A stretch of DNA of 41,475 bases from Bryobacterales bacterium (GTDB taxonomy: Bacteria > Acidobacteriota > Terriglobia > Bryobacterales > Bryobacteraceae): positions 10,873 through 52,347 of the forward strand of contig PMEV01000105.1 of assembly GCA_003154855.1 (NCBI GenBank). The letters are read 5' to 3'. The first letter of the stretch is position 1. Every line of letters begins with the position of its first letter. The translations under genes and the position numbers were made by a program. Shown in pieces: positions 1,545 to 20,080 of this stretch. The notes under the pieces are model-generated. The model did not search any database. It was not told where the DNA came from and saw nothing but the letters and a program-made list of their open reading frames with translations.

Positions 1545-3377
1545 ATGCGCATCCATAGATGGCTGATCGTACTCGTGGCCGTCGCGGCCTGGAGCCTGCC
1601 CGCATTCGCCGACAAGGGAAGTGCGGAGTACAAGCAGGGGGCTCGGGCGGAAAGCCAGATGAACTACGATTCGGCGTGCGCGCACTACAAACAGGCGACG
1701 ACGCTTAGCCCTAACAATCCGCAGTACTTCTCCGCCTATGCGCGGGTGCGCTTCGAGGCCTCAATGCGGCATGTGCATACCGGCCAACTCCTGCTCAACA
1801 CCGGCGCTCTGACGGATGCTCTGGCCGAATTCCAGCATGCCTCCGAGTTGGATACTTCGAGCTTCATCGCGCAGCAGGAGATGAGACGCACCGCCGATAT
1901 GCTCCGCAAGCAGGAGCGGCAACGGAGCTTGCCGCCGGCCCAGGCGCCCTCCGGGAAGCTGCCCGAAGGCGTGGGCGAGTCGCTCGAATTGCACGCGCTC
2001 TCGGATGCCGCCATCAGCCTGCACATGTCGGCGACGAGCACGGACGTAGTATACAGGACCATCGGGAAACTGGCCGGGCTGAATGTGCTGATCGATCCGG
2101 AGTACCGGCCGCAGAAGTTCAGCTTCGACCTTACCGACGTGACGTTACGCGAGGCGCTGGACTTGGTCCGGCTGCAGTCCAAGACGTTTTGGAAGCCCGT
2201 ATCCGCGAACACGATCTTCGTCACGGCGGACACGTCCTCGAAGCGCAAGGAGCTGGAGCAGAACGTCATGAAGACGTTCTACTTGCGGAATATCACCACG
2301 GCGAACGAACTGCAGGAAGCGGCCAACATGGTGCGGCAGATCCTGGATGTCAGCCGGGTGCAGCTCATGCAGGCGCAAGACGCGCTCATCCTGAGGGGCA
2401 CGCCGGACCAGATGGTGCTGGCCGAGAAACTGCTGGCGGACTACGACAAACCCAAGGCCGAGGTGATCATCGACGTCACGGTGATGCAGGTTGGCCGCGA
2501 CCGGCTTCGCAACCTGGGCACCACGGTGCCGACCTCTTTCAGCATGGGTTACCTGCCGGGCATTGGTAGCGTCAACAGCGGCAGCTCCAGCGGAGGCGGA
2601 GGATACACTGTGGGGATCGGGAATTTTGCGATTAGCATTCCGGGAGGGTCGTTCACCATGCTGGCCAGCGCCTCCGACTCGAAGATCCTCCAAAACCCCG
2701 AGATTCGAGCCTTGAACGACGAGAAGGCCACGTTGCGAATCGGCGATCGCGTGCCCATCGCGACCGGTTCGTTCTCGACGGGAGTAGTCGGCGCGGGCAG
2801 CGTCAGTCCGCTGGTGAGCACTCAGTTCCAGTACCTGGATGTGGGCGTGAATATCGATATTACTCCGCACATCCATTCGGATCGCGAAGTCACGCTCAAG
2901 ATGGTGTTGGAGATTTCCTCGGTCACCGGCTCGGAGACGATCGGCGGGATCACACAGCCGATTATTGGGCAGCGCCGGATCGAACATGAGACCCGGCTGG
3001 CCGATGGCGAGGTGAACCTGCTCGCCGGGATGCTGGAGGATACAGAGACCAAATCCCTGAGCGGCTATCCTTGGGTGAACAAGATACCGATTCTCAAGTA
3101 CTTGTTTGCGCAGGAGAACAAAGACCACCAGGAAAATGAGATCGTCTTCGCCATCACGCCACACATTGTGCGAGCTAAGGAAGTGACCGAGGAAAACCAG
3201 CGGATGATTGAGATCGGCACCGGCAGCTCGATCGAACTGCGCCGCAAGCCGCATTCCAACGATACCGCCAAGGCGCTGCCGCCGGATAAGGCGTCCGCCC
3301 CCGGCGCACCCGTGACTGCGCCGGCCTCGACCGTGCCGGTGCAGACCAACCCGGCCAACCCGGATCCGGCGAAGTAG
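1545..3377 (+). CDS. Secretin (type II/III secretion system / pilus secretin family) with N-terminal TPR-like region
   Basis: Signal peptide MRIHRWLIVLVAVAAWSLPAFA. Secretin C-domain motifs are present: NPEIRALNDEKATLRIGDRVPIATGSF and SGYPWVNKIPILKYLFAQENKDHQENEIVFAITPHIV. Pro/Ala-rich C-terminal tail. No other secretion-system genes are nearby. Confidence 0.85.
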   Translation: MRIHRWLIVLVAVAAWSLPAFADKGSAEYKQGARAESQMNYDSACAHYKQATTLSPNNPQYFSAYARVRFEASMRHVHTGQLLLNTGALTDALAEFQHASELDTSSFIAQQEMRRTADMLRKQERQRSLPPAQAPSGKLPEGVGESLELHALSDAAISLHMSATSTDVVYRTIGKLAGLNVLIDPEYRPQKFSFDLTDVTLREALDLVRLQSKTFWKPVSANTIFVTADTSSKRKELEQNVMKTFYLRNITTANELQEAANMVRQILDVSRVQLMQAQDALILRGTPDQMVLAEKLLADYDKPKAEVIIDVTVMQVGRDRLRNLGTTVPTSFSMGYLPGIGSVNSGSSSGGGGYTVGIGNFAISIPGGSFTMLASASDSKILQNPEIRALNDEKATLRIGDRVPIATGSFSTGVVGAGSVSPLVSTQFQYLDVGVNIDITPHIHSDREVTLKMVLEISSVTGSETIGGITQPIIGQRRIEHETRLADGEVNLLAGMLEDTETKSLSGYPWVNKIPILKYLFAQENKDHQENEIVFAITPHIVRAKEVTEENQRMIEIGTGSSIELRRKPHSNDTAKALPPDKASAPGAPVTAPASTVPVQTNPANPDPAK

Positions 3378-5448: not shown

Positions 5449-5603
5449 CCCACACCTCCCGTCTGAGTCGATACGTACTACCGGGCTTCACGGGCGTATG
5501 CATCCCAGCGCCCAGAAGCACCCTGCTGCCGCCAGCCCCTCACGTTAAGCCAATCGGTGCCGCCGTCGCCGGTTGCGACGGGCTATCACGCTCGCTGGAA
5601 TTG

Positions 5604-5631
5604 GAAGGCGGTTCCCCAGTGCCCCGCCTTC
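5604..5631 (-). terminator. Hairpin about 30 nt downstream of the PEP-CTERM gene
   Basis: GAAGGCGG (5604-5611) and CCGCCTTC (5624-5631) form a perfect 8-bp stem with a 12-nt loop. On the minus strand it is followed by CAAUUCC, a weak U tract. Confidence 0.35.
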
Positions 5632-5660
5632 TCCCAAGCGCGATTACAAACTCGTCCTAG

Positions 5661-6311: not shown

Positions 6312-6460
6312 CTTGATATCCTCCAGTATTCCTAAGTATCTCTTAATCGGTCCTTGCCACGGCCCCACTCTGTCCTTCGCGGGAGACGCCGACCGGGCTG
6401 GCTCTCCCAACGCGCACACCTCCTCAGGCGTGCCACAATACCGCATTCGATTGTGAAGCA

Positions 6461-6489
6461 ACTTTAACACAGTCGTCGGCACCCGTCAA
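6461..6489 (-). promoter_or_regulatory. Sigma70-like promoter candidate for the PEP-CTERM gene
   Basis: Minus strand reads TTGACG (6489-6484), a 17-nt spacer, then TAAAGT (6466-6461). This implies a leader of about 140 nt. Sequence match only. Confidence 0.25.
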
Positions 6490-6493
6490 TACC

Positions 6494-7384
6494 CTATCTG
6501 GCGTTCGATGCGACCTCGGCCTGCGGCTTCGAGAACCGCGCCTCGTCCAGCTTGGGATTGACCACCACCTTGTTGATGATGGCTCTTTCCATGGGAACGG
6601 GAGGGTCCTTGAGCCCCAGAGCCGTCGTGCCGACGGAGAGAACTTTGGTCTCCAGAAGGTATGGAATTTGCAGGCCGGCTACCGTGCGGAAATCGCGGAA
6701 GTAGACTTCCACGGGATGGTCGACACCATCCAGGCGCCGAGGCTGCCCCTCGATCTTGGTCTCCAGGAAAGTCTGCGCGTCGATCCAGACGTGAATCGCC
6801 TGCCCGCTCTTCATCGTCAGTTTGAGCTTATAGGCATCGCGATCCTCGACCTTCTCCGTCCCCGCCAGCTCGATCCGTGTGCCCTTGGCTGCATAATCGA
6901 CCAGGGGGCCATCCAGGTCCGCCTGAGTGGAGGCAATCCGCAGCTCCTCCGCGGTATAGGGCTCGACGACGCGCCGATTGAGGAACGGCCTCAGCTTCCA
7001 GCCGCTCGAGCCGTCGTACACCTGAATCGCGGTCTGGCCTGCGAATTCCAGTTCCATACGCATCTTGCGAGGGCGCATCAGCTCCATCGCAAAAGGCAGT
7101 TGAACCTCCTCTGCCGGACGCGCAGGGAGCGCGAGTTGGCCAAGCTTCCGGCCACCCGGAACAGGCACCGGGAGGGCAGCCCGCTGATTCCCGCCTGCTC
7201 CCAGCTTGCCCGAAAACGACATGCTCTGGACCGCACGCCAGGCCTGCAAGCCGCCGCGGGCCTCTATGTTGCGGTTCACAATATCGGCCGCGGAGAGGCC
7301 TGGCCCGGACGAGGGGGCCTCCGCCGCGCCGAGGGAGATGGCAAATGCCAGAAGAGAGCAACTACCCAGTGACCATCGATTCAT
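6494..7384 (-). CDS. Secreted hypothetical protein, possibly LolA-like / outer-membrane lipoprotein-sorting fold
   Basis: Signal peptide MNRWSLGSCSLLAFAISLGAAEA. The N-terminal ADIVNRNIEARGGLQAWRAVQSMSFSGKL resembles LolA-like sorting-family proteins (weak call). Start set at ATG 7384, with GGAGGA 7 nt upstream. The track start at 7399 is a TTG. Confidence 0.6.
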   Translation of the reverse strand: MNRWSLGSCSLLAFAISLGAAEAPSSGPGLSAADIVNRNIEARGGLQAWRAVQSMSFSGKLGAGGNQRAALPVPVPGGRKLGQLALPARPAEEVQLPFAMELMRPRKMRMELEFAGQTAIQVYDGSSGWKLRPFLNRRVVEPYTAEELRIASTQADLDGPLVDYAAKGTRIELAGTEKVEDRDAYKLKLTMKSGQAIHVWIDAQTFLETKIEGQPRRLDGVDHPVEVYFRDFRTVAGLQIPYLLETKVLSVGTTALGLKDPPVPMERAIINKVVVNPKLDEARFSKPQAEVASNAR

Positions 7385-7430
7385 GTGTGCGTCCTCCAAG
7401 ACGGATTTTGGTGCCGGCAGAAGGCCAGCG

Positions 7431-7934
7431 TTAATCTACCGCGAGCCCTTCTGCCCGGAAATTCCCAATCACTATGTCCACGCGGTGTCCGGGTCTCACC
7501 ATCCTGCCTCTGTTCGAGAAACCCATCCAATAGGATTTGCCCGCCTCGGGCGTGGAACTCTGTCGCAACAGGCCGATCTTGTCCATCGACGGGACCACCA
7601 GCCTGACGCCGGCCTGCGGGTCAATCAGGAACGGCTCCAGTTTCTTGTCGCTCAGCGGCTTGGCCTTCTCGGGGTCCAGCACGCGATAGCTAAAACGAAC
7701 GATCTCGCCGGACTCGGTGTACTTCACGCCGAGAGAATCGATTCCCCAGACGGCTCCGTAGTACAGAGCGGCGCGCCTGGGGACCCGGTCTGCGTTGAAA
7801 CGGGGAGCGGCGGCCGGCGCCGAAGCCTGTCCCGCCGGGCTGGCGGATTGGGCTCCTACAGAGACCGGAATGCCGCTGGCGACGATCCCTGCCAGCAGCA
7901 TCAGCTTCGCGCCCGGAACCTTATGCTCGAACAT
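7431..7934 (-). CDS. Small secreted hypothetical protein
   Basis: 167 aa with an N-terminal hydrophobic signal (KLMLLAGIVASGIPVSVGAQS). Coding-like composition, same strand, 81 nt downstream of the giant gene. I recognise no family. Confidence 0.55.
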   Translation of the reverse strand: MFEHKVPGAKLMLLAGIVASGIPVSVGAQSASPAGQASAPAAAPRFNADRVPRRAALYYGAVWGIDSLGVKYTESGEIVRFSYRVLDPEKAKPLSDKKLEPFLIDPQAGVRLVVPSMDKIGLLRQSSTPEAGKSYWMGFSNRGRMVRPGHRVDIVIGNFRAEGLAVD

Positions 7935-8015
7935 TGTGAGTGTGTCCTCGCCCTGGTAACTGCCAGGAACCGGGGGCCAGCGGCTCGCGCCAACCCCCGG
8001 TCCCGTTCTGGTTGC

Positions 8016-11000
8016 CTAGTTGCCGGTACCCGTCAGAGCCACCGGCGAATTGATGACCGTCACGGGGTTCGTCCCGCTCAGGGCGCTGATGGTCACGGTG
8101 CCACGGTACGACGTAACCGCGGCCGGAGTGAACACCACGTTGATAGTACAACTGGCCCCGCCGGCCAGATCGAGACCGCAAGTGCCCGGCGAGGTGGTGG
8201 ACCGCGTGAACACCGCTGGCGTGAAGGCCAGGGCGATGCTGCTCGCCGTCGCGGTTCCCGTATTGCGAAGGGTCAGGGTGAGCGGCGCGCTGGTCGTGCC
8301 GTGCGTCACCGTTCCAAAGGCCAGTGAAGTGGGCGTCACCGTCAAGGTCACGGGCAGAGCCGTGTTGTGCTCGATCGCGCCGACGTCGATCCTGCTATCC
8401 GCATCCGGCCTCGGGTTGCCGAAGAAGTCGGTCGGCGGAGCCGCTTGGCCGGCCACGGAACTGGTCGGGATGTAATCGATGGCCGGAGAACCGGTCGCCA
8501 GGGCGTAGTTGCCTAGCACCAGGCCGGTTACCGGATGAGCCTGCGACAGCGGCCCGAAGGTGACGTTGATCCAGTTGTTGCCCTCGTCCACGGTGGCCGA
8601 CGGCAGCAGGCTGAAGATCGGATTGGGAACGGTGGCGTCCGAGATGCCCGGTGGCACGTCGTAGCCCGCGGCGCCAAAGCATCCATCCGCCGCGGTGCAT
8701 TCCGGCGGGATCCGCGCTCCGTTGCAGTACTGAGCGACAACGGTCGGGTTGGATGCCAGGTTATTCAAACCGGTGTAACCGGTGATGTCCGTGATCACCG
8801 AGTACGTCGGCGCCAGAGTGAACTTGGAAGAATGGTTGCGCGGCCCGGTATCGCCGCGCACGCCGAGGTCCCAGTAGGACGCGCCGGGAGCGCAGGCCCC
8901 CGTGCCACCGGTGATGATGGTGCCACCGCCGTTGTTAGAGATGGAGTCGGTCCGCGGCTGGCTCAGCGTCGGATACATCGTGATGATGTTCTGCTGGTAC
9001 TGGTTGCTCAGCGAGCCCACACCGACGAAGAACGAGCGGTTCTGCCAGAGCAGGTCGTTATACAGCTCCGGATAGGAGACTAGGGTGCAAGTCGGCGCCG
9101 AAGCCGAGCCCACCTTGCCCGTTTGCGGTGTGCCAGGAGCGTAATGGCCGGTCGGGCAGGTGATGGTCAGCCCCGTGAGGCTCAAAGCCAGCACCGGGCT
9201 GTTGCCGGATACCGCCAAGCCGCCAGGCTGAGGCAGCGATGTGCTGCCGGTCGGCCCAGTGGTTCCAGGGGGCGGCGGCCCACTGGCCAGAGGCGCCCCG
9301 AGGGTGGTAGTGAGAACCCCCGCGGTAGCCGTGGAGTCGTTGGAGACCACGGTGTTGTTCACGAAGTTCACCGCCAGGGCATCCTGGAAGGAGACGCCAC
9401 CGCCGTCCCAGCCGGCAACGTTGTCGACAATGACATTGTTGATCACCGCCACGCTGTACCAGCGATCGGGACGTGAGGGGAACGTGGAAATATCTGTCCC
9501 GTTCACGCCCTGGAAGCGGAGGCCGCCGCCAGCGCCGCTTTCCGCCATGTTGCCCTGAATCAGGTTGGCGTTGATTACCAGGCCGGGCCCGGTTCCGTCG
9601 CTCATTCCGGGCGGGCAATCCTGGTCGGGCTGGGTGCCGCACACAGGATCTGTGTCGGGAGTCCCCTGAATGATCATGCCGCCGCCGTTGGTCGGGATGG
9701 TCGGATTGGTGCTCTGGTTGAACAGGATGGCGTTGTGCTCGATGTCGCCGTTCCAGTTCATCCCCAGGTGAGCGAATCCGCCGCCGTCGCCGGCGCTCAG
9801 GTTTCCGCACACCCAGTTGTAGTTGAACTTATAGTAGTCGGCGCCCGTGCAGAAACTGACGCCGCCCGCTCCAGCCGGGGTAGCCGAGAACAACTCGTCG
9901 CCGATGGAGCTGTTCAGCGTGACCGAATTGTGGTGCACGTTGACGTTCAGGTCGAAGCAGTACGGCAACTCCAGGCCCGTGTACGTCTGACCGGTGTAGC
10001 AGGAAGGTGGATCGTATGCGGTGCCGCCCACGATGTTGGCGGGCGCAAACTCACCCTGGCCGACGTTGATTCCGCCCGAGAGCGTTCCGGTATTGCTGTG
10101 TATCCGGTTGTTCGCGATCTCGAGGTAATGCCCGTAGGCATGCACGAAAACTCCGCCGCCGCCCTGCGAGCTGTCGGTGACGCTCAGCCCATCGATCCGC
10201 GACGGATTGCACAGGAAGTTGCTGGGATACGGATTGGCGCCACTTGGGCCGCTGGTGCAGTCGGCTGCCGTCAGCAGCACGGTGCCGGGCGGGAAGGTGT
10301 CGCTTCCGAAAGGATTGGATCCGGTCGGGAACTTTACGCCTTTCCCGAGAACCGTGATTCCGGCTCCTTCGTAAGCGCCCATCAGCGTCGGCTCCTGCAA
10401 CTGCTCGGCCAGGTTTCCGTTGAGTGTGGCGTCCCAGCCGACCACTGCCTCCAAGGGCAGCCGGTCGACCGAGAACTGCTGCGCCGCCGGGCAAATCCAT
10501 GGTCCGCCGTTATTGCCTTTGTCGGAGGGCGGATCGTACGGATTCCCCGCGCTGATGGGCCGGCCATTGATGGCGATTCCGAACAGGCAATCCACCTGGC
10601 GCCGCCAGGGATCCAGCCTGCCCGCGGGTTGCGTGTTGGCGTTGATGATGCTGGAGGCCGCGCCGACACCTTGCAGCCGCACCGGCTTCCACATGAGCAC
10701 GAACTCGGTGTAGACGCCGGGCGGAACGATGATCAGGTCGCCCGGCTGCGCCGCGTCGATGGCCGACTGAATCGTGGCTCCAGCAGCCATCGGAATCGGA
10801 GTTTTGCCGCCTATGGTGACCGTCACCGCGTCGACCGATTGTCTGCCGTTGTCGGCCGTGATGATCAGTTCGCCGCAGCGTTCGGCCGGCACGGAGCCGC
10901 CATTCGGCCCGCCGTATAGGGCCTGTTGCTGGATCGCGCACAGCGGCACATTCGGGGGAACCGTTACCTGGATCTGAGTGCCGCTCCAACTGGTAACGGT

Positions 11001-14000
11001 CGCCTTCACGCCGCCGATGGTCACTCCGCCCACGCCCTGAGTAGCCCCAAAGCCGTAATGACGCGTGATCTTCTTCTGATTGAAAGGAGGCGCCGTGGCC
11101 GAGGGGCCGGAGTACGCATAGTTGTTCACCTGCTGGTCGGGAAGAGAATTGATCGTGAGGGTGTGGCCGGCCGCCAAGACCCAAGGCCCAGCCACGTCGC
11201 CGGTCACCGTAGAGACCGCTGGCGTCGTGTCGGGGTACTCGCAGTCGGGATGGTTGTACCCTTCCGAGAAGCCCGCGGTGGGAACCACCGGGGTGTCCAG
11301 GTAGTCGGTCTGCCCCGGCATGAACGGCAGCTCGTAGCAGAACTGGCTGTAGCCCGATTGGTACAGCGGGTCCGGAGTGGGTCCCGATCCAGGGTCGTTC
11401 ATGCACATGACCATCATGGTGGGTGAATAGCCCGTCGGATTGGGCGGGTTCACTTCCCAGGTCGAGTAATTCAGACCATTGTAGAGGCCCCACTGGTCCG
11501 CATACACCCGTGAGATTTCGTTCCCGGCCCAGTCCCTGACGGATACCGGCAAGTTGGGCGGCGAGAATTTCTCGCCGAACTGCGGCGAGAACGGATCGAA
11601 TTCGGAGGTGAAGTCGTCCGTGATCACCCCGGTGAACTTGGCGGCGATGTGGGTCGAAGTGTAGATGTAGAATTTCGCCGTCGCCGCCATCTGGTCCGTC
11701 AAGACCACTTCCTTGCGGTCGCACAGATTGCGCGTCGCTCCGGCGAAGGGCGACACCTCCTTGGACTGCGGGAAGAGGCTGATGAAGTCGGGCACCACGC
11801 GCGCCTGTCCCACGCACGCCCAGACGGGCTCGAAGGGGAATCCGGGAACCGTATCGGTATGCGGGCCGGTCCCCAGGTTGGTCGTGGGATTGTTTGGGTT
11901 ATTCGCGTTGTAGGCGCTGCCGATCGCGGCCTGGTCGGGAATGATGAAGATGGAGGCCATGGTGGCGAACTCCTGGGTCACCGGCGCGATGAAGCTGTCG
12001 CCGATCAGGATGTTCTTATCCTCTTCCTTCACCAGTTCGAAGCCCGGAGGCACCACCACTTCCACCACGTACTTGCCCGCCGGAAGCATCGGAGTGCCAA
12101 ACCTGAGGGTATCCGACGCGTCGGGATTCGTCTTGCAGACCGCGCAGTTCGTGGTGAGGGGCTTTCCCGTGGTTGTGCTTGTCGAAGTCACGCTCGGGAA
12201 CGAGTACATGCCGTCGTAAGGCGCCGGCTGGAGCTGATTCCAGTTGTGCATGCCGTCATAGCACTTGAACTGAGAGTTGTATGGCAACGCAGTCCCTGGA
12301 TTGAGCCAGTTCACCTGGTTGTACAACGTGAAGTAGAAGAGATCCCCCGTCGACTGGCCCGGGCAGTTCATGTTCGGAACGCTGTCCGAACGGAAACCCT
12401 GCGACCAATCGTCCCAACTGCTGGTCTGGGTGGTGTCCACCAGCGTGAGAGATTGGGTCCCGTCGGGCGCCGTCCCTTCCTGGTAGAGGTTGATGGTGAC
12501 GTGTGGAACCAGAGGCTCCCATTGGGTCTGAACCAGCAATATCGGGTCGTCGAAAGGACGGGTCGAGGCATAGATCACATGTCCCCTGATCCCGCCGTTT
12601 TCACCGGGAGCGAAGGGCGCCTTGCCGAATTCGATAAAGTTGTTCTGGCCGGTGAAGCCCTGCCAGCCCTCGGCCGGGGTCCAAGGCGTATCGATCCGGC
12701 CCGTCGACAGCGTGGTCGAGCAGGTAGTAATGCCCGAGGACGTCGTACAGTTGCTGGGCGGATCGCTGCTGCCGGCCCCACTCTGAATCGATTTGCCCGC
12801 GCAGTCCGCGCCCTTGCAGTACACCGCACCCGGCACCCGCAGGTTCGTGGGCGACGTGGGCAGGGAGACCAGCTCGAGCGTGTTCGCCAGGTTCTTGCCA
12901 ATGGTGGAAGTCCCGCACGGCGGGTAGCCCGGCACACCGCAGGACGCCGAGCCGTCGACAGGTCCGCCGGTGTCGTACACCGTGTGGATACCCGTGGTCT
13001 TGTAACGGGTGGTGTCCGCTTCCACGACGTACCAGTTGAACAGCGGGAACGTCTCGTTGAAATTGGCCACGCCGTTGAAATCCGTGGTGAGGTTGTTGGA
13101 CAAGCTGCCGTCCCGGTACCGAATGGTGGTCGGAATCAGCGGGATCCCCGCTTCGCCTTTATCGTAGACGCCGTTCTTGTTATCGTCGATGAAAGTCCGG
13201 GTGTAGAGATTGGCCTGCCATTGCGTGACCGGAACGTCCTTCATATTGGTCAGGGTGCCGCCCCCCAGGGTAAGGGGCACCGAAAGGCCGTCCACGATCT
13301 GATCGTTCCACTGATCGAAGAGGGTGACCCTCCAATCGCCGGCGGGAAGACCGGTCAGGGTGAAGTTCCCGTCTATGTCGCACTTGGTGAAGGCGAAATC
13401 CTCGCCGTCCGGATCTCCCAAGCTGACGTAGCACTGCGTCCAACCAAACGTATCGCGGGTGCCAGTGCTGTAGAGCCGCTCATCCGGCGTCCGGCTCAGG
13501 TGCAGGCCTGTTACCTTGCCCGTCACCGAGTTGTTGCAGGGGCCCAGCGGGCCGAGGTCGGCCCCGGAGCAGACGGCCGCCAAGCGATTATTGATGATCT
13601 TCGGGTTGGCAAATCCAATGGATACGTGGTATCCGGCCGGCCCGAACTCCTGGAAGTAGCTCGGCTCGCCGATCCGGATGAACGCATCGTGGGCCTTCTG
13701 GCCGTCCAGCGTGTTGGTTTGGAGCCACTCTTCGCCCCTCGCAATCCGGTCGGCGCCCGGCGTGGCCACCACGCTGAATCTTCCCGGCATCAGGTTGGCA
13801 ATCAGGGCCTGGCCCGCCAGCGGGGATAGAGTCGCTCCGTCGGATTCGTACTTCGGGCAGGTAACGATCTGGCCTGTGATGCCCGCTTGAGCCGTATTGC
13901 CGGTAGCCTGGGTTGAAATCGGGCACGCATCCAACCCGGTCACTGGATCGATCGTTCCCGCCAGGCTGTTCGACAGCGGCATGTTGAACATGTCGTAAGT

Positions 14001-16547
14001 CATCTGTCCGGTGAAGTCGCCAGAACCGCCCATGGCGTCGAAGATCTCGAGGTTAAAGCCCCCCAATCCGGGCTCGTTGGGCGAGAGGATGTCGACTCCG
14101 CCACCCGCATCTTGCTCGCCGTTGAGCGGGAAGTCGTCTTCGAACACGATCACGGATAGTTTCCCCGGCGGGAGCGGCGTGGGTTCCACCAGGACCGTGA
14201 TACTGGTCACCAAACGCGTCAAGGTAGTCGGATCGATGGGGATCGGAGCGCCGCCCATGGTGTGGCCTGGCCCGGCCCCATTGAACGGGTTGGCTGCGTC
14301 GCCGGGCAGGACCGAGATGTAGTAGCGCTTGGCTGGGTCCAGAGAGACCTTGCTCGGATCCACGGCCGTCTGTTGGGTGGCCGTCGTCCGGCACACACCG
14401 TTGCCCACGTCGCACACCGCGGGTACGCCCAGGACACTCTGACCCGATTCGCAGGACAGCGGTCCCGTGCATCCCTGCGCCACAAATGCTGTCGAGCTGG
14501 TGTGGAAATTGACCCCATAGGTCGGAACGATCGGGCCAGTCGGGCCGGTGTTAACCGTCTTGGTCGGATTGACGAAGAAGGTCCGATCTTCTTCGATAAC
14601 CCAGCGATAGTCCGTGAGAACGCCTCCCGTCGAGGGATCCTTGACCGTCACCGTAATCGGGCTCACCGGCGTGGGGAAGTTTATCGTCACGGTCGCCGCG
14701 GCGCTGAGCGTTCCCTGCGAGTTCTGCGCCTTGTACTGGAAGGTGTAGGTGCCCGGCCCGGGAACAGAGGCGTTGAAGCCGCCGTTGGCAGCCATGACCA
14801 CCGTCAGTCCGCCTGCCGGCGACACACTGGCCACGTTCACTGTGAGCGGATAGCCCGCGAGGTCCTTGTCCACGGCCAGGGGGCCGGGTGTCTTGATGGC
14901 CAGGGAGGTGGCCACTGTCGAATTGTAGGTGATCGGATTCACGACGATGCCGCCCGTGGCCTCCACCGGCGCCAGAGTCAGCGTCACCTTAGCGGTGGGA
15001 CCCGTGCCATTGGCCTGGTAGAAGAAGCTATCCGGGGCGGTCCAGCCGGCGTTGGGCACATACGTAAAGGTGCCGTTGGCGAAGAGAGTCAGCACGCCTT
15101 TGGTTGGCGCGGTGGCAACCTTAACGCCGTAGACGTTGATGTCGTTGGCGATCACGCCCTTGCTGGGATCCGATACGGTGAGCGTCTCGCCCGGCACCAC
15201 GGTGTAAGCATCCGGGTTGGCCTGCGCGGGCGTCAGGGCGGGGGCATTCGGGATCGCCGAGCCGTTGATGCCGACGTAGGCTAGCATTCCGGCGTCGCGT
15301 ACCACCGCGTTGCCCGACAGGCTCAACTCGCGGTCGTATATCGGAAGGGCAGTCGCCGGCGGCGCGGAGGTGGCGGGAGCGTTGACCATCACATCGTAGG
15401 TCTTGCCCGCGGCCATGAAGACTTCGTTCTGCACGCGGCCCACGCCCGGCAGCACGTTGCCGTCTTCCGCAATCAGCGACATGCCGGCAACCGCCGGTGT
15501 CCCGGTCAGCGATCCGATGATCGAGGGCACGTGCATGCGCAAGCCCGCGTTGACCAGGCGCACCAGGACCAGCCCGGTGCCAGGGGTAACGGCCCGCGAA
15601 ATCGGGAACAGAGATGCCGGGGAGTTGGTTTTGTTGAAGGCGACCCCGTTGATCATGTAATACAGCGGGATGTAGTTCACCGCGGGCGGATAGCACGTGT
15701 GATAATTGGCCGAAGCGGGATTGCCGCATTGGTTCGGCTGGCCGGACCACACCGCGGTCTCGGTGAACCCCACCGTGCCGACCGCGGTGGTGACGGCGTT
15801 GTTCTGAACCGGGTCGATTTCACTGAACAGCAGCGGGACGTCCGCATTATAGGTTACGCCGGGGTAGGCAAGGCCAACGACGCCTGCCGACGGCGCGGTG
15901 GTAACCACCAGTATCCCGTACAGGCCCATGGGGCCCTGAATGGACGGGTGCGTGCCCGACTCAAACAGGTAGGTGCCCGGCCGGAGCCCCGACCAGGTCA
16001 GCGGCTTCATCGCTCCCGGCAGCACTTCCGTGGCGAACGACTGCACGCGCGGCCCCTGCAGCGGGGGCGTGCCGGAGGGACCGGAGTTCGCGATGGGCCA
16101 CGTGGTCGCCGCCTGGGCATTGGAGTGGTCCGGCGAAGGCGTGGTGGTCCTCTGCGCCAGCACTCCCAGACCGCCTCCCAACTGGCCCACGATCACCAGC
16201 GAGGTGGGCACCCCGTTCTTCCCGGCGCCAGCCGTGAACGAAAGATTATTGGTGAGGTTGACTCGCAGGCCTCCCGCGGCCGTGGTGGGAATCGTGATCA
16301 CCACCGGGGACCAGCCCGTACCCGCGCCCGTGTTCAACTTGGCGCAAGTCGCCGACGATCCCGGGACGACCGTGCCGCAACTGTAGCCCCACATCGGCAC
16401 TTGCGAGCCGTCCGGCAGGGTGACGGTGGCCGGTGCGGCAGTCAGATTGATCTGCTGCTGGCCGTAGGCCGCAACCGCCCCGGAGAAAAGAACACCCCCT
16501 AAGCATACCGCCACCTTCAAGATGGCTTTAAAGTCGTTGATTCGCAT
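8016..16547 (-). CDS. Giant (2843 aa) secreted multidomain protein. N-terminal copper-ligand-free MCO-like module, then cadherin/Ig-like, SdrD-B/Cna-B-like and IPT/TIG modules, a right-handed beta-helix and a C-terminal choice-of-anchor-D-like domain
   Basis: Uninterrupted ORF with signal peptide ..AVAAYGQ. aa 30-430 are paralogous to the upstream MCO-B. aa ~445-625: VIANDINVYG...GTFTYVPNAGWTAPDSFFY. aa ~1040-1190: CDIDGNFTLTGLPAGDWRV and FIDDNKNGVYDKGEAGIP. aa ~1826-1915: GVTIGGVKATVTSWSGTQIQVTVP. aa ~1920-2700: AQPGDLIIVPPGVYTE, NNRIHSNTG, HHNSVTLNSS, DVGAIE. aa ~2730-2843: LTVTPTSLAFGTVTHGTTSAPLTLTLRNTG. GGAG lies 9 nt upstream of the ATG. Confidence 0.9.
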   Translation of the reverse strand: MRINDFKAILKVAVCLGGVLFSGAVAAYGQQQINLTAAPATVTLPDGSQVPMWGYSCGTVVPGSSATCAKLNTGAGTGWSPVVITIPTTAAGGLRVNLTNNLSFTAGAGKNGVPTSLVIVGQLGGGLGVLAQRTTTPSPDHSNAQAATTWPIANSGPSGTPPLQGPRVQSFATEVLPGAMKPLTWSGLRPGTYLFESGTHPSIQGPMGLYGILVVTTAPSAGVVGLAYPGVTYNADVPLLFSEIDPVQNNAVTTAVGTVGFTETAVWSGQPNQCGNPASANYHTCYPPAVNYIPLYYMINGVAFNKTNSPASLFPISRAVTPGTGLVLVRLVNAGLRMHVPSIIGSLTGTPAVAGMSLIAEDGNVLPGVGRVQNEVFMAAGKTYDVMVNAPATSAPPATALPIYDRELSLSGNAVVRDAGMLAYVGINGSAIPNAPALTPAQANPDAYTVVPGETLTVSDPSKGVIANDINVYGVKVATAPTKGVLTLFANGTFTYVPNAGWTAPDSFFYQANGTGPTAKVTLTLAPVEATGGIVVNPITYNSTVATSLAIKTPGPLAVDKDLAGYPLTVNVASVSPAGGLTVVMAANGGFNASVPGPGTYTFQYKAQNSQGTLSAAATVTINFPTPVSPITVTVKDPSTGGVLTDYRWVIEEDRTFFVNPTKTVNTGPTGPIVPTYGVNFHTSSTAFVAQGCTGPLSCESGQSVLGVPAVCDVGNGVCRTTATQQTAVDPSKVSLDPAKRYYISVLPGDAANPFNGAGPGHTMGGAPIPIDPTTLTRLVTSITVLVEPTPLPPGKLSVIVFEDDFPLNGEQDAGGGVDILSPNEPGLGGFNLEIFDAMGGSGDFTGQMTYDMFNMPLSNSLAGTIDPVTGLDACPISTQATGNTAQAGITGQIVTCPKYESDGATLSPLAGQALIANLMPGRFSVVATPGADRIARGEEWLQTNTLDGQKAHDAFIRIGEPSYFQEFGPAGYHVSIGFANPKIINNRLAAVCSGADLGPLGPCNNSVTGKVTGLHLSRTPDERLYSTGTRDTFGWTQCYVSLGDPDGEDFAFTKCDIDGNFTLTGLPAGDWRVTLFDQWNDQIVDGLSVPLTLGGGTLTNMKDVPVTQWQANLYTRTFIDDNKNGVYDKGEAGIPLIPTTIRYRDGSLSNNLTTDFNGVANFNETFPLFNWYVVEADTTRYKTTGIHTVYDTGGPVDGSASCGVPGYPPCGTSTIGKNLANTLELVSLPTSPTNLRVPGAVYCKGADCAGKSIQSGAGSSDPPSNCTTSSGITTCSTTLSTGRIDTPWTPAEGWQGFTGQNNFIEFGKAPFAPGENGGIRGHVIYASTRPFDDPILLVQTQWEPLVPHVTINLYQEGTAPDGTQSLTLVDTTQTSSWDDWSQGFRSDSVPNMNCPGQSTGDLFYFTLYNQVNWLNPGTALPYNSQFKCYDGMHNWNQLQPAPYDGMYSFPSVTSTSTTTGKPLTTNCAVCKTNPDASDTLRFGTPMLPAGKYVVEVVVPPGFELVKEEDKNILIGDSFIAPVTQEFATMASIFIIPDQAAIGSAYNANNPNNPTTNLGTGPHTDTVPGFPFEPVWACVGQARVVPDFISLFPQSKEVSPFAGATRNLCDRKEVVLTDQMAATAKFYIYTSTHIAAKFTGVITDDFTSEFDPFSPQFGEKFSPPNLPVSVRDWAGNEISRVYADQWGLYNGLNYSTWEVNPPNPTGYSPTMMVMCMNDPGSGPTPDPLYQSGYSQFCYELPFMPGQTDYLDTPVVPTAGFSEGYNHPDCEYPDTTPAVSTVTGDVAGPWVLAAGHTLTINSLPDQQVNNYAYSGPSATAPPFNQKKITRHYGFGATQGVGGVTIGGVKATVTSWSGTQIQVTVPPNVPLCAIQQQALYGGPNGGSVPAERCGELIITADNGRQSVDAVTVTIGGKTPIPMAAGATIQSAIDAAQPGDLIIVPPGVYTEFVLMWKPVRLQGVGAASSIINANTQPAGRLDPWRRQVDCLFGIAINGRPISAGNPYDPPSDKGNNGGPWICPAAQQFSVDRLPLEAVVGWDATLNGNLAEQLQEPTLMGAYEGAGITVLGKGVKFPTGSNPFGSDTFPPGTVLLTAADCTSGPSGANPYPSNFLCNPSRIDGLSVTDSSQGGGGVFVHAYGHYLEIANNRIHSNTGTLSGGINVGQGEFAPANIVGGTAYDPPSCYTGQTYTGLELPYCFDLNVNVHHNSVTLNSSIGDELFSATPAGAGGVSFCTGADYYKFNYNWVCGNLSAGDGGGFAHLGMNWNGDIEHNAILFNQSTNPTIPTNGGGMIIQGTPDTDPVCGTQPDQDCPPGMSDGTGPGLVINANLIQGNMAESGAGGGLRFQGVNGTDISTFPSRPDRWYSVAVINNVIVDNVAGWDGGGVSFQDALAVNFVNNTVVSNDSTATAGVLTTTLGAPLASGPPPPGTTGPTGSTSLPQPGGLAVSGNSPVLALSLTGLTITCPTGHYAPGTPQTGKVGSASAPTCTLVSYPELYNDLLWQNRSFFVGVGSLSNQYQQNIITMYPTLSQPRTDSISNNGGGTIITGGTGACAPGASYWDLGVRGDTGPRNHSSKFTLAPTYSVITDITGYTGLNNLASNPTVVAQYCNGARIPPECTAADGCFGAAGYDVPPGISDATVPNPIFSLLPSATVDEGNNWINVTFGPLSQAHPVTGLVLGNYALATGSPAIDYIPTSSVAGQAAPPTDFFGNPRPDADSRIDVGAIEHNTALPVTLTVTPTSLAFGTVTHGTTSAPLTLTLRNTGTATASSIALAFTPAVFTRSTTSPGTCGLDLAGGASCTINVVFTPAAVTSYRGTVTISALSGTNPVTVINSPVALTGTGN

Positions 16548-16575
16548 TGTTTTTCTCCGTTGTCAGTCGGACTCG

Positions 16576-18171
16576 TCACATGGACTCGTCGATCAGGAAT
16601 TCCCGGGAATCGACCAGCATCATCATCAGCATTCCACCGGGAAAGACGTTGTTGGTAGTGATTTCGCGCTCGTTGTGCGAGTGCCACATATACGCATAGC
16701 CCCGCTCGTTTGCGGGGTTGGCCTGCGAGTTCGAAGGTTGAAAGACGCTCAGCGGCCCTGTCGCGCGCACCGTCGCATCCGGACCCAGATAGGGACTGCC
16801 GTTGTACCAGGGGCCGTTCGTGAAAATGTTCGCATCGGGCAAAGTGATCGGGCCGCCGCTCTCGACATCCCCGAAGGGAGAGGCTTGGATCGGCTTGTTG
16901 TGGTCCTGGCACCACTCGAAATAGTTGATCGCGCTCACCGGCGCCGGCGGCGAGCTATTCACCGTGTAGTAGCCGTTGGTGTCCGGAACGCAGGCGACGT
17001 TGGCGAGCGGGTCGCTGGATGTGGGATTGTGACCGTACATATCCCAGTTCAGGCCCTTGCCGGTGACGTAGAAGAGACCGTCGAAGGCTTGGCCCGGAGT
17101 CGTGTCGGTAGTGAACATCAAAAGCCCGGCGAGAAGGGTCGGATCGCTCTGGCTGAGGAGCAGGTTCGCGTCGCGCGCCAGAATGCGCACATGGTTGGCG
17201 TGCTCGTGGAACGGATGCTGCCACCGGCCTTGGCCGATGACCCGTATCAGCGTGATTTCACCTGGATGCATGTGCGGATTGCCGTTGTAGGGCTGGTGCG
17301 GATACTCGGCCCCATAGTTGGCATCCATCAGGTCCGGCATCGCACGTCCATTAATCAGGTAGTACGCGGGATGGTACGGCTCGGTCGGGACTTCCAGACT
17401 GCAGCCCTGCGCCCCGGCCGTGCAACCTAGCGTCGCAGCGACCTGCAGCCGCGCCTGATTGTGGATGACCGGATCCATCTCGGCGAACTGGAACAGGTAT
17501 TCACGGTCGTAGCAGGTCTTGGCGTGGTCGTAAGCGGCCTGCGACAGCCGGAAGTCCTTTTCGCCATGGGCCGCCTCCACCTGCGTGTTCGCGAGAGGCA
17601 ACCCGCTGGTGCAGGCGGTGGGAACGCTGCTCGGGAGCACAATGATCGCGCCATAGAGGCCCATTTCGACCTGCAGGTCGCCTTGCGTTCCGCTGTAATA
17701 GGAGCGGGTCCCCGGCGAGGAGGCGGTGAAGGAATAGGTCACCGTCCCTCCAGGCGCAGCCTCCTGCGTCAGCAGCCCGATTACACCGCCCGTCGTGGTC
17801 ACCTTAAAGCCAGGAAACAAAATCGACGTGTTGCCGGCCGAAGTGGGGAGATTGTTGGTCAACTGCACTGTGACCGTTTGTCCCTCCGTCACGATCAGCG
17901 TGGGTCCGGGAACTTGCATGGTCGGGCAGGTCGCGGTAGTAATCGCCGAGGGGGCAAAGCCGCTCGGCGTGCCGTTGCAGCCGTAGCCCCACGAGTAGAT
18001 CGCCGACCCGTCCGGCGTGTTCAGGTAAGCGGTTTGCGCCGTCAGCTTGAAGTTCGGCCCGGTGATGCCGGGAGCCGCCGCGAAAGCCGTCGCCGCCAAC
18101 AGCATCAGTGCCGCCGCCGCCGGGATCGGCCGCCAATTCGAGATCGCTTTAGTCATGTTCGTCGCCCTCAT
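16576..18171 (-). CDS. Multicopper-oxidase-family protein B (two cupredoxin domains). HxxHxH and HSH motifs occur only in the C-terminal domain, and there is no T1 cysteine
   Basis: Signal peptide ..LLAATAFAAAPG. WQHPFHEHANH (H319/H322/H324, nt 17200-17217) and YMWHSHNERE...GGM (H497-S-H499, nt 16675-16683). The N-terminal domain has ILFPGF and SYYSGTQ where HxHG and WYHSH would be. GGAGAG lies 5 nt upstream of the ATG, which is 10 nt after the upstream stop. Confidence 0.85.
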   Translation of the reverse strand: MRATNMTKAISNWRPIPAAAALMLLAATAFAAAPGITGPNFKLTAQTAYLNTPDGSAIYSWGYGCNGTPSGFAPSAITTATCPTMQVPGPTLIVTEGQTVTVQLTNNLPTSAGNTSILFPGFKVTTTGGVIGLLTQEAAPGGTVTYSFTASSPGTRSYYSGTQGDLQVEMGLYGAIIVLPSSVPTACTSGLPLANTQVEAAHGEKDFRLSQAAYDHAKTCYDREYLFQFAEMDPVIHNQARLQVAATLGCTAGAQGCSLEVPTEPYHPAYYLINGRAMPDLMDANYGAEYPHQPYNGNPHMHPGEITLIRVIGQGRWQHPFHEHANHVRILARDANLLLSQSDPTLLAGLLMFTTDTTPGQAFDGLFYVTGKGLNWDMYGHNPTSSDPLANVACVPDTNGYYTVNSSPPAPVSAINYFEWCQDHNKPIQASPFGDVESGGPITLPDANIFTNGPWYNGSPYLGPDATVRATGPLSVFQPSNSQANPANERGYAYMWHSHNEREITTNNVFPGGMLMMMLVDSREFLIDESM

Positions 18172-18181
18172 TGCCGCTCTC

Positions 18182-19798
18182 CTAGTTGATATGCACCTCG
18201 GTCATCAACCCGCCGAAGTTCTCTGCATCGTTGGACAGGTGGTCAAGATTGGGGGTGTAGAGGTAGAACACGCTGCCCGAGGGATACAACGTTGTGTTGC
18301 TGGCATCCAAAATCACGTCCAGCGACTCGCCGCCAGCCAGCGTGATCGAGTTGGTGTTGTAAGCCATGTTGATCCCGGCTTGGTCCCGCAGCAGCTTCGC
18401 GTTGTAGCCGACGACCTTCATCGGAATCCCCAGCGAGGCCAGCGTCTGGTATTCCATCACGTCCAGGTCGGAAATGCGCAGCAGCGCTTTTCCGCCGGCC
18501 GGAATGTTGATGATCGAATCCATCGGCTGCGAGAAATGCCTGTTGGAGTCGGCCGACTCCGTCTGCATCGCGCCGGCCGTCACCGTGTCCGGGTAGCTCC
18601 GCCCGTTCAGCAGGAAGTACTTGTCCTTCATGTCCACAAAGCCTTCCGGGTTGAACGTCATGCCGACGAAGTGGAAATTGGGGTCGAAACCGTGAATCTG
18701 AAGGGGATACTCCACGTCGTAGGCCGTCGAGCCGTCGCCGTCGTTGTAGGCGTACTTGTAGGGCTGGCCCGTCCTCGGGTCGATGCTCTGGTTGACGCTG
18801 TTGGAGGGCGGAAGCGGATTGCTGCACAGCACGTCGGTTGCGGAATTGCAGGCCGTGCGCAGATCGTTCTGTTGCAGCGCCAGGGCGGCCCGGAGGCCGT
18901 TGCCGACCTTGACCCGATTCTGCCGGGGGCGTACATAGAGCTGCCCCACCATGCCCATCTGCAAGTGCTCGGGAGGCGTGATATGGCAGTGCCAGAAGTA
19001 GGTGCCGGCATCGGGCGACAAGTAATAATAAGTGAAGCTGCCCCCGATGTTGATGGCCACCGAGGCGTCCGGTACGCCGTCGTAGAAAGGCGCGGCATTG
19101 GGATAGCCGTGGAAGTGCACCGTGTGCTGTTCGAAGAGGTCCGGGCGCATGATCATGCCCACGTTGGTGAGCGTGAGGAAGAACTCGTCGTCCTCGTCGA
19201 ACGCCATCAAGGGCGCCGGGATGTTGCCGTTCATCACTCCCACGTCCATGATCGGCCGCGGATCCACGTGCCCATCCAGGGGTGCGCCAGCGGTTCCCGA
19301 CCCGTTGTTCGCATCCAGATCGGGCATCAGCCCCACCGCCCCGTTATAGGTGAACGAGCCCGCGCCGAACTTGTTGACCGTGGTGGCGGGATCGCCGGGC
19401 TGCAGCGGGATCGCACCCGGATACACGGTATTGAAGACGTTCGGGAACTCCGTGCCCGGCAAGCCCCTGGACATGTCGTAGAGCCCGGATAACGGTCCGA
19501 AGGAGAACATGAATGTCTGCGTCCCGTCGGCCATCGTCGAGTAACCGTCGCCGCCCGAGATCTGCTGGCACTTGATAGCGCCGTTGACGTTCGACGTCGG
19601 CGTCAGATATCCTTTGGCCCCTACCGTCCAGCCGGTCGGGCCCACGTAGTTGGGTTCTGAATTGTTGTTCGCCGCCACCGGGTGAGTGATGGTGCTGGTT
19701 GGACACTGCACTCTAAACGACTGAGCGGTCGCCGTCAGTGCCGCAACACAGATCAGCGCCACCAGGACCCACGAAATACCCAATCTTCTCGTTCCCAC
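18182..19798 (-). CDS. Multicopper-oxidase-family protein A (two cupredoxin domains). T1 site plus half of the trinuclear-cluster ligands in the N-terminal domain; possible Tat signal
   Basis: GTG start with GGAGGAGG 5 nt upstream. N-terminus MGTRRLGISWVLVALICVAALTATAQS contains a twin arginine. EQHTVHFHG (nt 19109-19126) and FWHCHITPPEHLQMGM (nt 18950-18991). The C-terminal domain motifs are degenerate (YPLQIHG, YLYTPNLDH). Confidence 0.85.
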   Translation of the reverse strand: MGTRRLGISWVLVALICVAALTATAQSFRVQCPTSTITHPVAANNNSEPNYVGPTGWTVGAKGYLTPTSNVNGAIKCQQISGGDGYSTMADGTQTFMFSFGPLSGLYDMSRGLPGTEFPNVFNTVYPGAIPLQPGDPATTVNKFGAGSFTYNGAVGLMPDLDANNGSGTAGAPLDGHVDPRPIMDVGVMNGNIPAPLMAFDEDDEFFLTLTNVGMIMRPDLFEQHTVHFHGYPNAAPFYDGVPDASVAINIGGSFTYYYLSPDAGTYFWHCHITPPEHLQMGMVGQLYVRPRQNRVKVGNGLRAALALQQNDLRTACNSATDVLCSNPLPPSNSVNQSIDPRTGQPYKYAYNDGDGSTAYDVEYPLQIHGFDPNFHFVGMTFNPEGFVDMKDKYFLLNGRSYPDTVTAGAMQTESADSNRHFSQPMDSIINIPAGGKALLRISDLDVMEYQTLASLGIPMKVVGYNAKLLRDQAGINMAYNTNSITLAGGESLDVILDASNTTLYPSGSVFYLYTPNLDHLSNDAENFGGLMTEVHIN

Positions 19799-20037
19799 GC
19801 TTCCTCCTCCGCCGCCGATGGCGTTCCTTTCGTCTCCATTGCCCCGGCGGCCGTTACCTCAAGACCGGGCTAGTTGCCGCCGCACCGTTCCGAATTTCAG
19901 GAAGGGATTCAGCCCCTCGATGACCGGGTACCCCTCGCTCCACGCGATCCCTCTAGCGGGATACTACGCCGGCCGACACCCAACGGTTAAGGTTTTTTCA
20001 CGCTACGGGTATCTTACCGGATTGGTAATTGATGTCT

Positions 20038-20051: not shown

Positions 20052-20061
20052 AGACGTGGCG

Positions 20062-20080
20062 CCGGCGGTCTTGCCGCCGG
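20062..20080 (-). terminator. Hairpin downstream of regA (candidate terminator)
   Basis: CCGGCGG-TCTTG-CCGCCGG, a perfect 7-bp GC stem, about 97 nt after the regA stop. It is followed on the minus strand by ..GUCUUUGC. There is no strong U tract. Confidence 0.3.

Follow-up and report, generated by a model that had tools for sequence, protein, structure and literature searches.

A copper-free head on a giant secreted protein of Bryobacterales as the putative third subunit of a split two-domain multicopper oxidase

The 41,475-nucleotide (nt) stretch of DNA analysed here, referred to throughout as the window, comes from a Bryobacterales bacterium of the phylum Acidobacteriota (assembly GCA_003154855.1, contig PMEV01000105.1, positions 10,873 to 52,347) and carries on its minus strand three closely packed open reading frames (ORFs), with gaps of 10 nt between the first and the second and 28 nt between the second and the third. 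They encode two protomers of the two-domain multicopper oxidase (2dMCO) type, A (538 amino acids (aa), 18182..19798, Pfam Cu-oxidase_3/_2) and B (531 aa, 16576..18171, Pfam Cu-oxidase_3), and a giant protein of 2843 aa (8016..16547), recognised as an ORF with orthologous ORFs in other genomes; Sec-type signal peptides are present on all three. Within the giant, aa 29–435 are called the head and the ~2,200 aa beyond a two-domain linker the body, and any head-type module is called C. The analysis on balance favours reading the giant as two conserved components, fused together, of an extracellular copper-oxidase cassette that comprises several genes and in which an A-B-C ring would sit on the body. 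That the head is a non-catalytic multicopper oxidase (MCO) module functionally tied to A and B is supported indirectly but strongly. A first-pass annotation of this DNA had proposed a non-catalytic scaffold that docks the A/B oxidase through a pseudo-MCO head; the non-catalytic module and its tie to A and B are upheld by synteny, gene fusions and the split of the copper ligands, but the docking of a complete A/B enzyme by a local copy is better restated as a pseudo-subunit of a three-protomer oxidase.

A ligand-free oxidase module at the head of the giant

The first-pass annotation had described a secreted giant whose first ~430 aa resemble B, and both points hold. The ORF starts with a Sec-type signal peptide (aa 1–28, 16464..16547, minus strand) with a B-like n-region, and in BLASTP aa 1–440 of the giant match B at an E-value (E) of 2e-11 and 24% identity (giant 33–339, B 41–319), in an alignment that contains every motif pair originally quoted. 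When the head and B families are compared profile against profile in hhalign, using A, B and head orthologues taken from 82 related loci, the result is a 99.4% probability and E 1.9e-21 (head 1–339, B 1–319), and because the alignment begins at residue 1 the signal-peptide n-region is also common to both. The head (15243..16463, minus strand) matches A weakly (E 0.06 in the pairwise and 0.0038 in the profile–profile comparison), and by these comparisons it is far nearer to B than to A and is a paralogue of B. The resemblance is confirmed as real and far beyond chance.

Searches of the head against Pfam and NCBIfam gave no significant MCO match, only a single one to PF00394 at aa 293–392 (13.9 bits, with the cutoff at 21; E 0.06). 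The absence of a significant MCO profile match had been named at first pass as evidence that would count against homology, but such a test is too strict, and the profile and fold evidence confirm the homology. A PDB profile search from the alignment of close head homologues reached E 0.05 only, and an AlphaFold2 (AF2) run with 36 close homologues only, which gave a predicted local distance difference test score (pLDDT) of 48, was discarded. With a diverse alignment of 116 sequences, which includes distant stand-alone homologues, AF2 modelled aa 29–435 confidently (pLDDT 88.2, predicted template modelling score (pTM) 0.88). In a Foldseek search of the PDB with this model, trimeric two-domain MCOs came top, with 3g5w at E 1.9e-15 and a target template-modelling score (TMt) of 0.67, and with TMt values of 0.69 for 2zwn, 0.71 for 4kns, and 0.69 for 3gdc; 470 PDB matches had E<=0.001, and the 50 best listed are all MCOs or copper nitrite reductases. 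The sequence profile of the C family likewise finds 3g5w and 2zwn at E about 3e-14, spanning both domains, and together with the predicted model it confirms a cupredoxin/2dMCO fold of two consecutive domains. The mean identity of the head is 0.68 and 34% of its positions are invariant, indicating strong purifying selection. Some head homologues carry the JGI label ‘FtsP/CotA-like multicopper oxidase’.

The degeneracy of the copper motif positions, claimed earlier for the giant, is complete for the canonical ligands and is qualified by conserved histidines at H339, H200, and H141, which are taken up below. Aligned to A and B, the head shows T115, V118, and V120 at the first HxxHxH and E196, S197, and G198 at HCH. 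The type 1 (T1) copper histidine corresponds to Q204, the second HxH to S342 and I344, and aa 395–440, the region of the last motif, are free of histidine. The canonical ligands are likewise absent in 28 close and 88 distant C proteins, where the position of the T1 cysteine is serine in 114 of 116 and HxH pairs are lacking. Judged as a catalytic MCO, the head has the cupredoxin fold but stays below the Pfam gathering threshold and has none of the four copper motifs; it fits the description of a copper-less MCO fold, which is kept while all canonical ligands are lost.

Complementary ligand sets in subunits A and B

The type-C two-domain MCOs are homotrimers with the T1 copper in domain 1, and in 2dMCO trimers (3G5W, 2ZWN, SLAC, NirK) every trinuclear cluster is located at an interface where domain 1 of a protomer meets domain 2 of its neighbour. 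The best PDB matches of A are the type-C trimeric enzymes 3g5w and 2zwn, those of B are likewise trimeric 2dMCOs, and ceruloplasmin (5n0k) is among the weak PDB matches to A. The ligands of A are confined to domain 1, where H225-x-x-H228-x-H230 and H270-C271-H272...H278...M283 provide a T1 site and four trinuclear-cluster histidines, and domain 2 has none. Those of B are confined to domain 2, where H319-P-F-H322-E-H324 and W-H497-S-H499 provide four cluster histidines with serine in place of the T1 cysteine, and domain 1 has none. Both sets are 100% conserved (50 orthologues of A, 69 of B), and in six lineages A has exactly one HxxHxH and one HCH, B exactly one HxxHxH and one HSH, and C no HxH.

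A and B are complementary halves and not two complete oxidases. Because the eight histidines are split between domain 1 of A and domain 2 of B, the interface geometry of the 2dMCOs would permit exactly one cluster, and a third two-domain protomer would be needed to close the ring, a part for which the ligand-free head has the right form; with half of the ligands in A domain 1, the other half in B domain 2 and none in C, the distribution suits a trimer of the 2dMCO type in which a single interface is active. A pseudo-threefold ring of A, B, and C at 1:1:1, with one T1 site and one trinuclear cluster, is considered somewhat more likely than not.

Conserved synteny and permutation of the modules

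The head was found at 518 places confirmed by tblastn in GTDB species-representative genomes, mostly in Acidobacteriota (Terriglobia, Bryobacterales, Solibacter, Sulfotelmatobacter, and the isolate AB60), and several acidobacterial genomes contain three to five paralogous whole A-B-giant cassettes (five in CAWDVL01, four in CAVPBA01, three in CAVSTL01). The C-terminal immunoglobulin (Ig)-like tails are the parts that diverge most between paralogous copies. The first-pass expectation that orthologues of the giant always lie next to an MCO pair is borne out: all 70 loci with enough upstream sequence have A and B directly upstream, encoded on the strand of the giant and separated by gaps with a median of ~20 nt, and in these and the rearranged variants no instance of a giant without adjacent MCO genes was seen. 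Intact giant ORFs in 51 loci measure 2526–3655 aa from stop to stop, shorter ones being frameshifted long-read assemblies. A tblastn search of PLSDB with the giant found full-length homologues (96% coverage, 53–56% identity), all carried on second replicons, in Cupriavidus metallidurans CH34, in Paraburkholderia caribensis and P. largidicola, and in Ralstonia solanacearum and R. syzygii. Current annotation describes the cassette only as ‘hypothetical’, ‘Ig-like’ or ‘choice-of-anchor D’ protein, and a paralogue in strain AB60 has the NCBI name ‘choice-of-anchor D domain-containing protein’.

With aa 640–1830 of the body as query, an exhaustive phmmer search returned 1893 representative proteins, of which 721 have E<1e-30; among them are relatives of 1650–2300 aa at 38–43% identity that have no head. 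The window and CH34 have C fused to the body, and in other lineages the same modules are arranged differently. A metagenome locus (L083) encodes the body (1809 aa), A (407 aa), B (467 aa), and C (748 aa, a head homologue at E 2e-30 with additional Big_9 repeats) as separate proteins, followed by d167 fused to the copper chaperone SCO1 and a monohaem cytochrome, and in marine Planctomycetes (L087 and L088) the body, A, B, C (407 aa) and a 163-aa ORF follow one another, with SCO1 and a cytochrome nearby. Fusions of the body to A occur in assembly GCA_054680655.1 (L084; 2311 aa, then B, C, d167, and SCO1, with NosL upstream), in Desulfobacterales (L089; 2267 aa, then B, a minimal C of 345 aa, a 149-aa ORF, and a MauG-like protein), and in assembly GCA_016294905.1 (L086), where a body-Big_9-A fusion precedes B and C. 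In L086 (7377–14267) A itself is split, the 2070-aa body fusion ending after domain 1 of A and a separate 224-aa ORF encoding domain 2, either through a frameshift or as a genuine further split.

Across Planctomycetes, Desulfobacterales, Betaproteobacteria, and further groups, at least four different arrangements of genes and fusions occur, and none of them separates the body, A, B, and C. Since one lineage has the body joined to C and others have it joined to A, the four would act as one assembly by Rosetta-stone logic. The first-pass annotation had taken the head for a copy of the neighbouring B, but it is no recent copy: on the sequence evidence C is an ancient, copper-free third subunit, usually a separate protein of 345–750 aa, which became fused to the body in the lineage of the window.

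An oxidase made of A and B alone, as A2B, AB2 or a higher oligomer, with the head as a separate non-catalytic partner in substrate binding, maturation or export, is an alternative reading, as the ligands of A and B already suffice for one T1 site and one trinuclear cluster, and the varied extra domains on C in other lineages (Big_9, TSP_3, dockerin, Ig, HpiC1-like) are of a kind expected for a targeting or adaptor protein. It is nevertheless judged unlikely, since each arrangement encountered preserves precisely three cupredoxin modules of two domains, C retains both full domains of its fold at 30% identity across phyla, and to our knowledge the solved structures of the 2dMCO/NirK fold class are all obligate trimers.

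Conserved histidines in the copper-free head

Although the canonical ligands are gone, H200, two residues past the HCH-equivalent position, is kept by all 28 close C proteins and by 76 of the 88 distant ones, and H339, the first histidine of the second HxxHxH-equivalent motif, by 28 of 28 and 48 of 88; H141, which lies in a lineage-specific insertion of 40 residues in domain 1 of the head (aa 128–168, 16044..16166, minus strand), is invariant in the acidobacterial type. This conservation would suit a cryptic, non-canonical metal or redox site formed by H200 and H339, with H141 in Acidobacteria, that binds an Fe or Mn substrate or admits electrons, but such a site is quite improbable: the T1-position cysteine and HxH pairs are missing, asparagine and arginine replace H200 and H339 in the C protein of L084, H200 (domain 1) and H339 (domain 2) would face different interfaces in the 2dMCO geometry, and the insertion with H141, the one part of the AF2 model with low confidence, is found neither in B nor in any of the distant C proteins. 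H200 as a retained trinuclear-cluster ligand was rejected, because the alignment sets it two residues after the HCH-equivalent.

A conserved body of several modules

The head is linked to the body by two Big_9/cadherin-like Ig domains (aa 442–623, 14679..15224; this and the following features on the minus strand), both above the Pfam cutoffs, and this linker (mean identity 0.56) is less conserved than the regions on either side. It is followed by body module 1 (aa 630–1010, 13518..14660; mean identity 0.67, with windows up to 0.83), by two prealbumin-like beta-sandwiches (aa 1041–1178, 13014..13427), of which the first is CarboxypepD_reg-like below the Pfam cutoff and the second a single SdrD_B copy (PF17210, aa 1118–1176, 43.2 bits against a cutoff of 29.7), and by body module 2 (aa 1190–1830, 11058..12980), which has many invariant Cys, Asp, Glu, and Trp residues and is present also in the head-less relatives. 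The two modules, ~1,000 aa together, match no Pfam family and no PDB sequence. An IPT/TIG-like domain (10803..11054) is sub-threshold (TIG, E 0.002, 18.4 bits against 20.9).

The right-handed beta-helix region (aa ~1920–2727, 8367..10790) ends in a choice-of-anchor-Q domain (choice_anch_Q, 27.8 against a cutoff of 25) and has no PDB sequence-profile match over aa 1900–2700. The Beta_helix model is weak in the giant of the window (13.9 bits against 25.9, E 0.04) and clear in the relative P0211 (38.1 bits, E 1.6e-9), and on the strength of the latter a right-handed beta-helix fold is likely. Membership of the NosD family is not, since TIGR04247 scores 19.9 bits against a cutoff of 300 and covers the first 45 positions only; a NosDFY-like role for the beta-helix together with the ABC genes of the window was rejected on account of this 45-residue match and because the ABC genes are not conserved with the cassette. 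The C-terminal Ig-like tail (aa 2734–2842, 8022..8348; Cep192_D4/ASH, with choice_anch_D of NCBIfam just below its cutoff at 41.9 against 45) has no invariant residue. In one locus labelled Gallionellaceae (L051) the giant stops before this tail, and a separate 159-aa ORF (18314–18793) encodes a choice-of-anchor-D-like Ig domain. The modules listed at first pass are therefore partly sustained, with Big_9/cadherin-like and SdrD_B above their cutoffs, TIG and choice-of-anchor D below theirs, and the beta-helix weak in the window and significant in P0211.

Mean identity along the giant is 0.68 in the head, 0.65–0.68 in the body modules, 0.60 in the beta-helix, and 0.32 in the tail, and the giant has 37 invariant cysteines, no haem motif and no tandem repeat variation. 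The earlier description as an adhesin-like scaffold does not agree with a body that is as conserved as the oxidases, unlike typical adhesins, nor does the giant qualify as an MSCRAMM/SdrD-type adhesin (NF012181, 15.3 bits against a cutoff of 2500), having a single B-like domain in place of tandem repeats and no anchor. A general surface adhesin or matrix protein that shares an operon with unrelated copper-resistance oxidases, its head an evolutionary relic, is hardly credible, for although adhesins often have domains of the Ig-like, SdrD_B, beta-helix, and choice-of-anchor kinds and a PEP-CTERM protein and a secretin are encoded nearby, the body is fused to the catalytic A in other lineages, the association with A and B extends to 70/70 loci and all variants, head and body are equally and highly conserved, and there is one SdrD_B only and no anchor.

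Accessory genes, export and neighbouring genes

Downstream of the giant on the minus strand lie the genes for two small secreted proteins, d167 (7431..7934) and d301 (6494..7399), followed by that of the PEP-CTERM protein. The fifth component of the cassette, d167, was identified in 64 of 86 loci, every rearranged variant among them; neither Cys nor His is conserved in it, it belongs to no Pfam or NCBIfam family, and its fusion in L083 (20554–21654) joins it N-terminally to the SCO1/SenC chaperone. d301 is present in 33 of 86 loci, with two paralogues in CH34 (locus L091, 17647–19290) that match LolA_like weakly (E 3e-4, below cutoff).

A TPR-secretin gene (1545..3377, plus strand; Pfam Secretin, Secretin_N, and TPR), which encodes a possible outer-membrane exporter with a tentative link to the cassette, sits 4.6 kb from the giant. 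Its orthologues, at 52–69% identity, lie within 7 kb of A in five acidobacterial loci, and in CH34 (L091, 1826–4030) as well as in L041 and L051 a TPR-secretin with a pseudopilin block is found directly upstream of A; the CH34-type block is shared by two metagenome-assembled genome (MAG) loci labelled Gallionellaceae and Gammaproteobacteria. The full order in CH34 is two small ORFs, the TPR-secretin, pseudopilin-like genes, A, B, the giant (2698 aa), d167, two d301 paralogues, a MofC-like monohaem cytochrome, SCO1/SenC, and a peptidyl-prolyl isomerase (PPIase), the last of which (21705–22595) is MofB-like. The copper chaperones SCO1 and NosL and the MofC-like cytochrome occur in variant loci. 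A dedicated secretin exporter for the complex is a tentative proposal to which we give somewhat less than even odds. Accessory genes vary from lineage to lineage. In L084 a MacB-type ABC transporter precedes the cassette along with NosL, and the MauG-like protein after the Desulfobacterales cassette (L089, 11793–12965) is a di-haem protein of the MauG/cytochrome c peroxidase type.

Directly upstream of A (20177–22020, minus strand) lie a response regulator with a receiver and a Fis-type helix-turn-helix but without the sigma-54 AAA domain and a PilS-like histidine kinase, whose listed ORFs share 238 nt, which makes a later start of the regulator probable, and next to them (22090–27356, minus strand) a tripartite efflux cluster of TolC-like OEP, ABC-2 permease, ABC ATPase, and HlyD-type adaptor. 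The response regulator, histidine kinase, TolC-like, ABC-2, and HlyD genes were rejected as members of the system, as they are not conserved beside the cassette elsewhere. Farther along are, in a row, a CHASE8 hybrid histidine kinase, a YfiR/HmsC-like DUF4154 protein and a TonB-dependent receptor (28056–33068, minus strand), and three heterodisulfide-reductase-like Fe-S, CCG-domain, and FAD oxidoreductase genes (35625–40288, plus strand). Between the secretin and d301, a minus-strand ORF (3931–5448) matches the Solibacter uncharacterized C-terminal domain (TIGR03437, E 2e-46), a taxonomic hint at Bryobacterales or Solibacter, and is overlapped by an Arg-rich, apparently spurious plus-strand ORF of 490 aa (3577–5049).

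Comparison with known copper oxidases

The type-C 2dMCOs (Nitrosomonas europaea blue copper oxidase 3G5W, the metagenomic mgLAC 2ZWN, 3GDC, 4KNS, and Nmar_1354 9CCK) and NirK share with A, B, and the head the two cupredoxin domains per protomer. They are homotrimers with three identical active interfaces, whereas the window has three genes with partial (A, B) or no (C) ligands, and one protomer fused to a 2,400-aa extension. Ceruloplasmin, hephaestin and the A domains of factors V and VIII form a pseudo-threefold ring of six cupredoxin domains that has only one trinuclear cluster and in which some domain pairs are degenerate and poor in ligands; they are single eukaryotic chains, whereas the ring proposed here would need three bacterial polypeptides, with no close sequence relation to them. 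Like the head, FtsP (SufI) and the plant SKU5-type proteins are non-catalytic and have an MCO/cupredoxin fold without the copper ligands, which were lost. FtsP has three domains, is exported by Tat and acts alone in the divisome, whereas the head is modelled with two domains, has a Sec signal without twin arginine, is fused to a giant and always occurs with two catalytic partners. In the Mnx complex of Bacillus, MnxG requires the non-catalytic MnxE and MnxF, but these are small and not cupredoxins and MnxG holds all ligands, whereas the non-catalytic C is a cupredoxin and the ligands are split over A and B.

Large secreted copper oxidases tied to metal-mineral redox, MofA of Leptothrix and OmpB of Geobacter, have been described as single chains with all copper motifs. 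Neighbours of these oxidases are MofB (a PPIase), MofC (a cytochrome c), and SCO1, and counterparts of all three follow the CH34 cassette. Export of OmpB is by an atypical type II system (PMC5566968), compared with the secretins linked to the cassette here.

The closest published parallel is in Sideroxydans lithotrophicus ES-1, where ‘three tandem MCO-coding genes’ were reported alongside one gene resembling mofC and one for a copper chaperone (He et al., 2017; PMC5566968). Two of the products, Slit_1817 and Slit_1818, have canonical MCO motifs, and the third, Slit_1816, is without them, far exceeds the other two in size and has domains like those of adhesins and polysaccharide lyases (Keffer et al., 2025; PMC12016527). 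The proteins of the Slit_1812-1818 cluster are predicted to be extracellular and reached a higher abundance on magnetite than with Fe(II)-citrate, and similar clusters were listed in Paraburkholderia, Ralstonia, Anaeromyxobacter, and Steroidobacteraceae (PMC12016527). By published description only, the window resembles Slit_1816-1818 in its two canonical-motif MCO genes and a larger, motif-less third protein, with d167 and d301 as small hypotheticals, and the CH34 locus resembles ES-1 also in its MofC-like cytochrome and SCO1, neither of which the window has. The bare observation has thus already been made for a proteobacterial relative, and the cassette is an uncharacterised but previously noticed one. 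Neither a heterotrimeric 2dMCO nor a pseudo-MCO, Acidobacteria MCO-giant, PEP-CTERM or Mn-oxidation system like this one was found described in the literature; a published candidate for a heterotrimeric 2dMCO was set aside, being an alpha-alpha-alpha' trimer of a single gene product. No published description was found of the split ligand sets, the trimer logic, the ancient stand-alone C family, the permutations or the large acidobacterial expansion.

Proposed assembly and its limits

The analysis shows the homology and fold of C, the loss of its ligands, the complementary ligands of A and B, the invariant synteny, the fusions of the modules and the linkage of copper chaperones to the cassette; from these data we infer the heterotrimer, its extracellular location and its substrate. 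In the proposed assembly, C is a cupredoxin protein with two domains, of the trimeric 2dMCO/NirK type, whose copper ligands were lost long ago, A would contribute the T1 copper and half of the cluster histidines from domain 1, and B the other half from domain 2. The A-B-C ring would then form a six-domain, ceruloplasmin-like oxidase with a single O2-reducing site at the A/B interface, C closing the ring structurally, and C would be joined through the two Ig-like domains to the ~2,200-aa body, which would carry the assembled oxidase. All parts carry Sec signals, and they would then probably be released across the outer membrane by a TPR-secretin system, after which the body might present the oxidase to an insoluble or polymeric electron donor. 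That the body and its variable tail position the oxidase on such a donor is possible but less likely than not. Tethering to a mineral or polymer draws on the variable Ig tail, the beta-helix and the magnetite proteomics of ES-1 only, and a solid Fe(II) mineral may be named as the one donor with any experimental hint, again through the magnetite proteomics of the ES-1 cluster (PMC12016527).

Several observations weigh against this assembly or parts of it. A2B, AB2 or (AB)n assemblies could fill the ring without C, and the conserved H200 and H339 suggest that C may do more than fill space. Pfam and PDB searches of the body detected no carbohydrate- or mineral-binding family. Neither PEP-CTERM nor any other recognisable cell-surface, membrane or cell-wall anchor is present at 52 C-termini of the giant, and tethering to the cell surface by such an anchor was rejected. 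The window has neither SCO1 nor the MofC-like cytochrome, and a promoter and terminator scan of 5400–20400 was uninformative, the sites being no more frequent than in shuffled sequence. The putative assignment of the cassette of the window to the Slit_1812-1818 type draws on matching descriptions and on homologues in the listed genera (Paraburkholderia, Ralstonia, and an Anaeromyxobacter-labelled MAG, L007) as well as in C. metallidurans CH34.

Implications

If the proposed assembly is right, it would be the first multicopper oxidase with a single active site that is split over two polypeptides and completed by a pseudo-subunit, an architecture new within the two-domain class, and it would represent a living intermediate between the homotrimeric two-domain oxidases and the six-domain enzymes of the ceruloplasmin type. 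The broadest form of the proposal, which falls just short of an even chance, is of a heterotrimeric ring, a ‘ceruloplasmin in three pieces’ with an ancient pseudoenzyme protomer, whose C (elsewhere A) is welded to a ~2,000-aa body and which, with a dedicated secretin, d167 and copper chaperones, would constitute a previously unrecognised, widespread machine that oxidises solid or polymeric electron donors such as minerals of Fe(II), Mn(II), or matter of humic and phenolic nature. The cassette is a genetically testable candidate for the extracellular oxidation of solid Fe(II) minerals, Mn or organic polymers by abundant soil bacteria.

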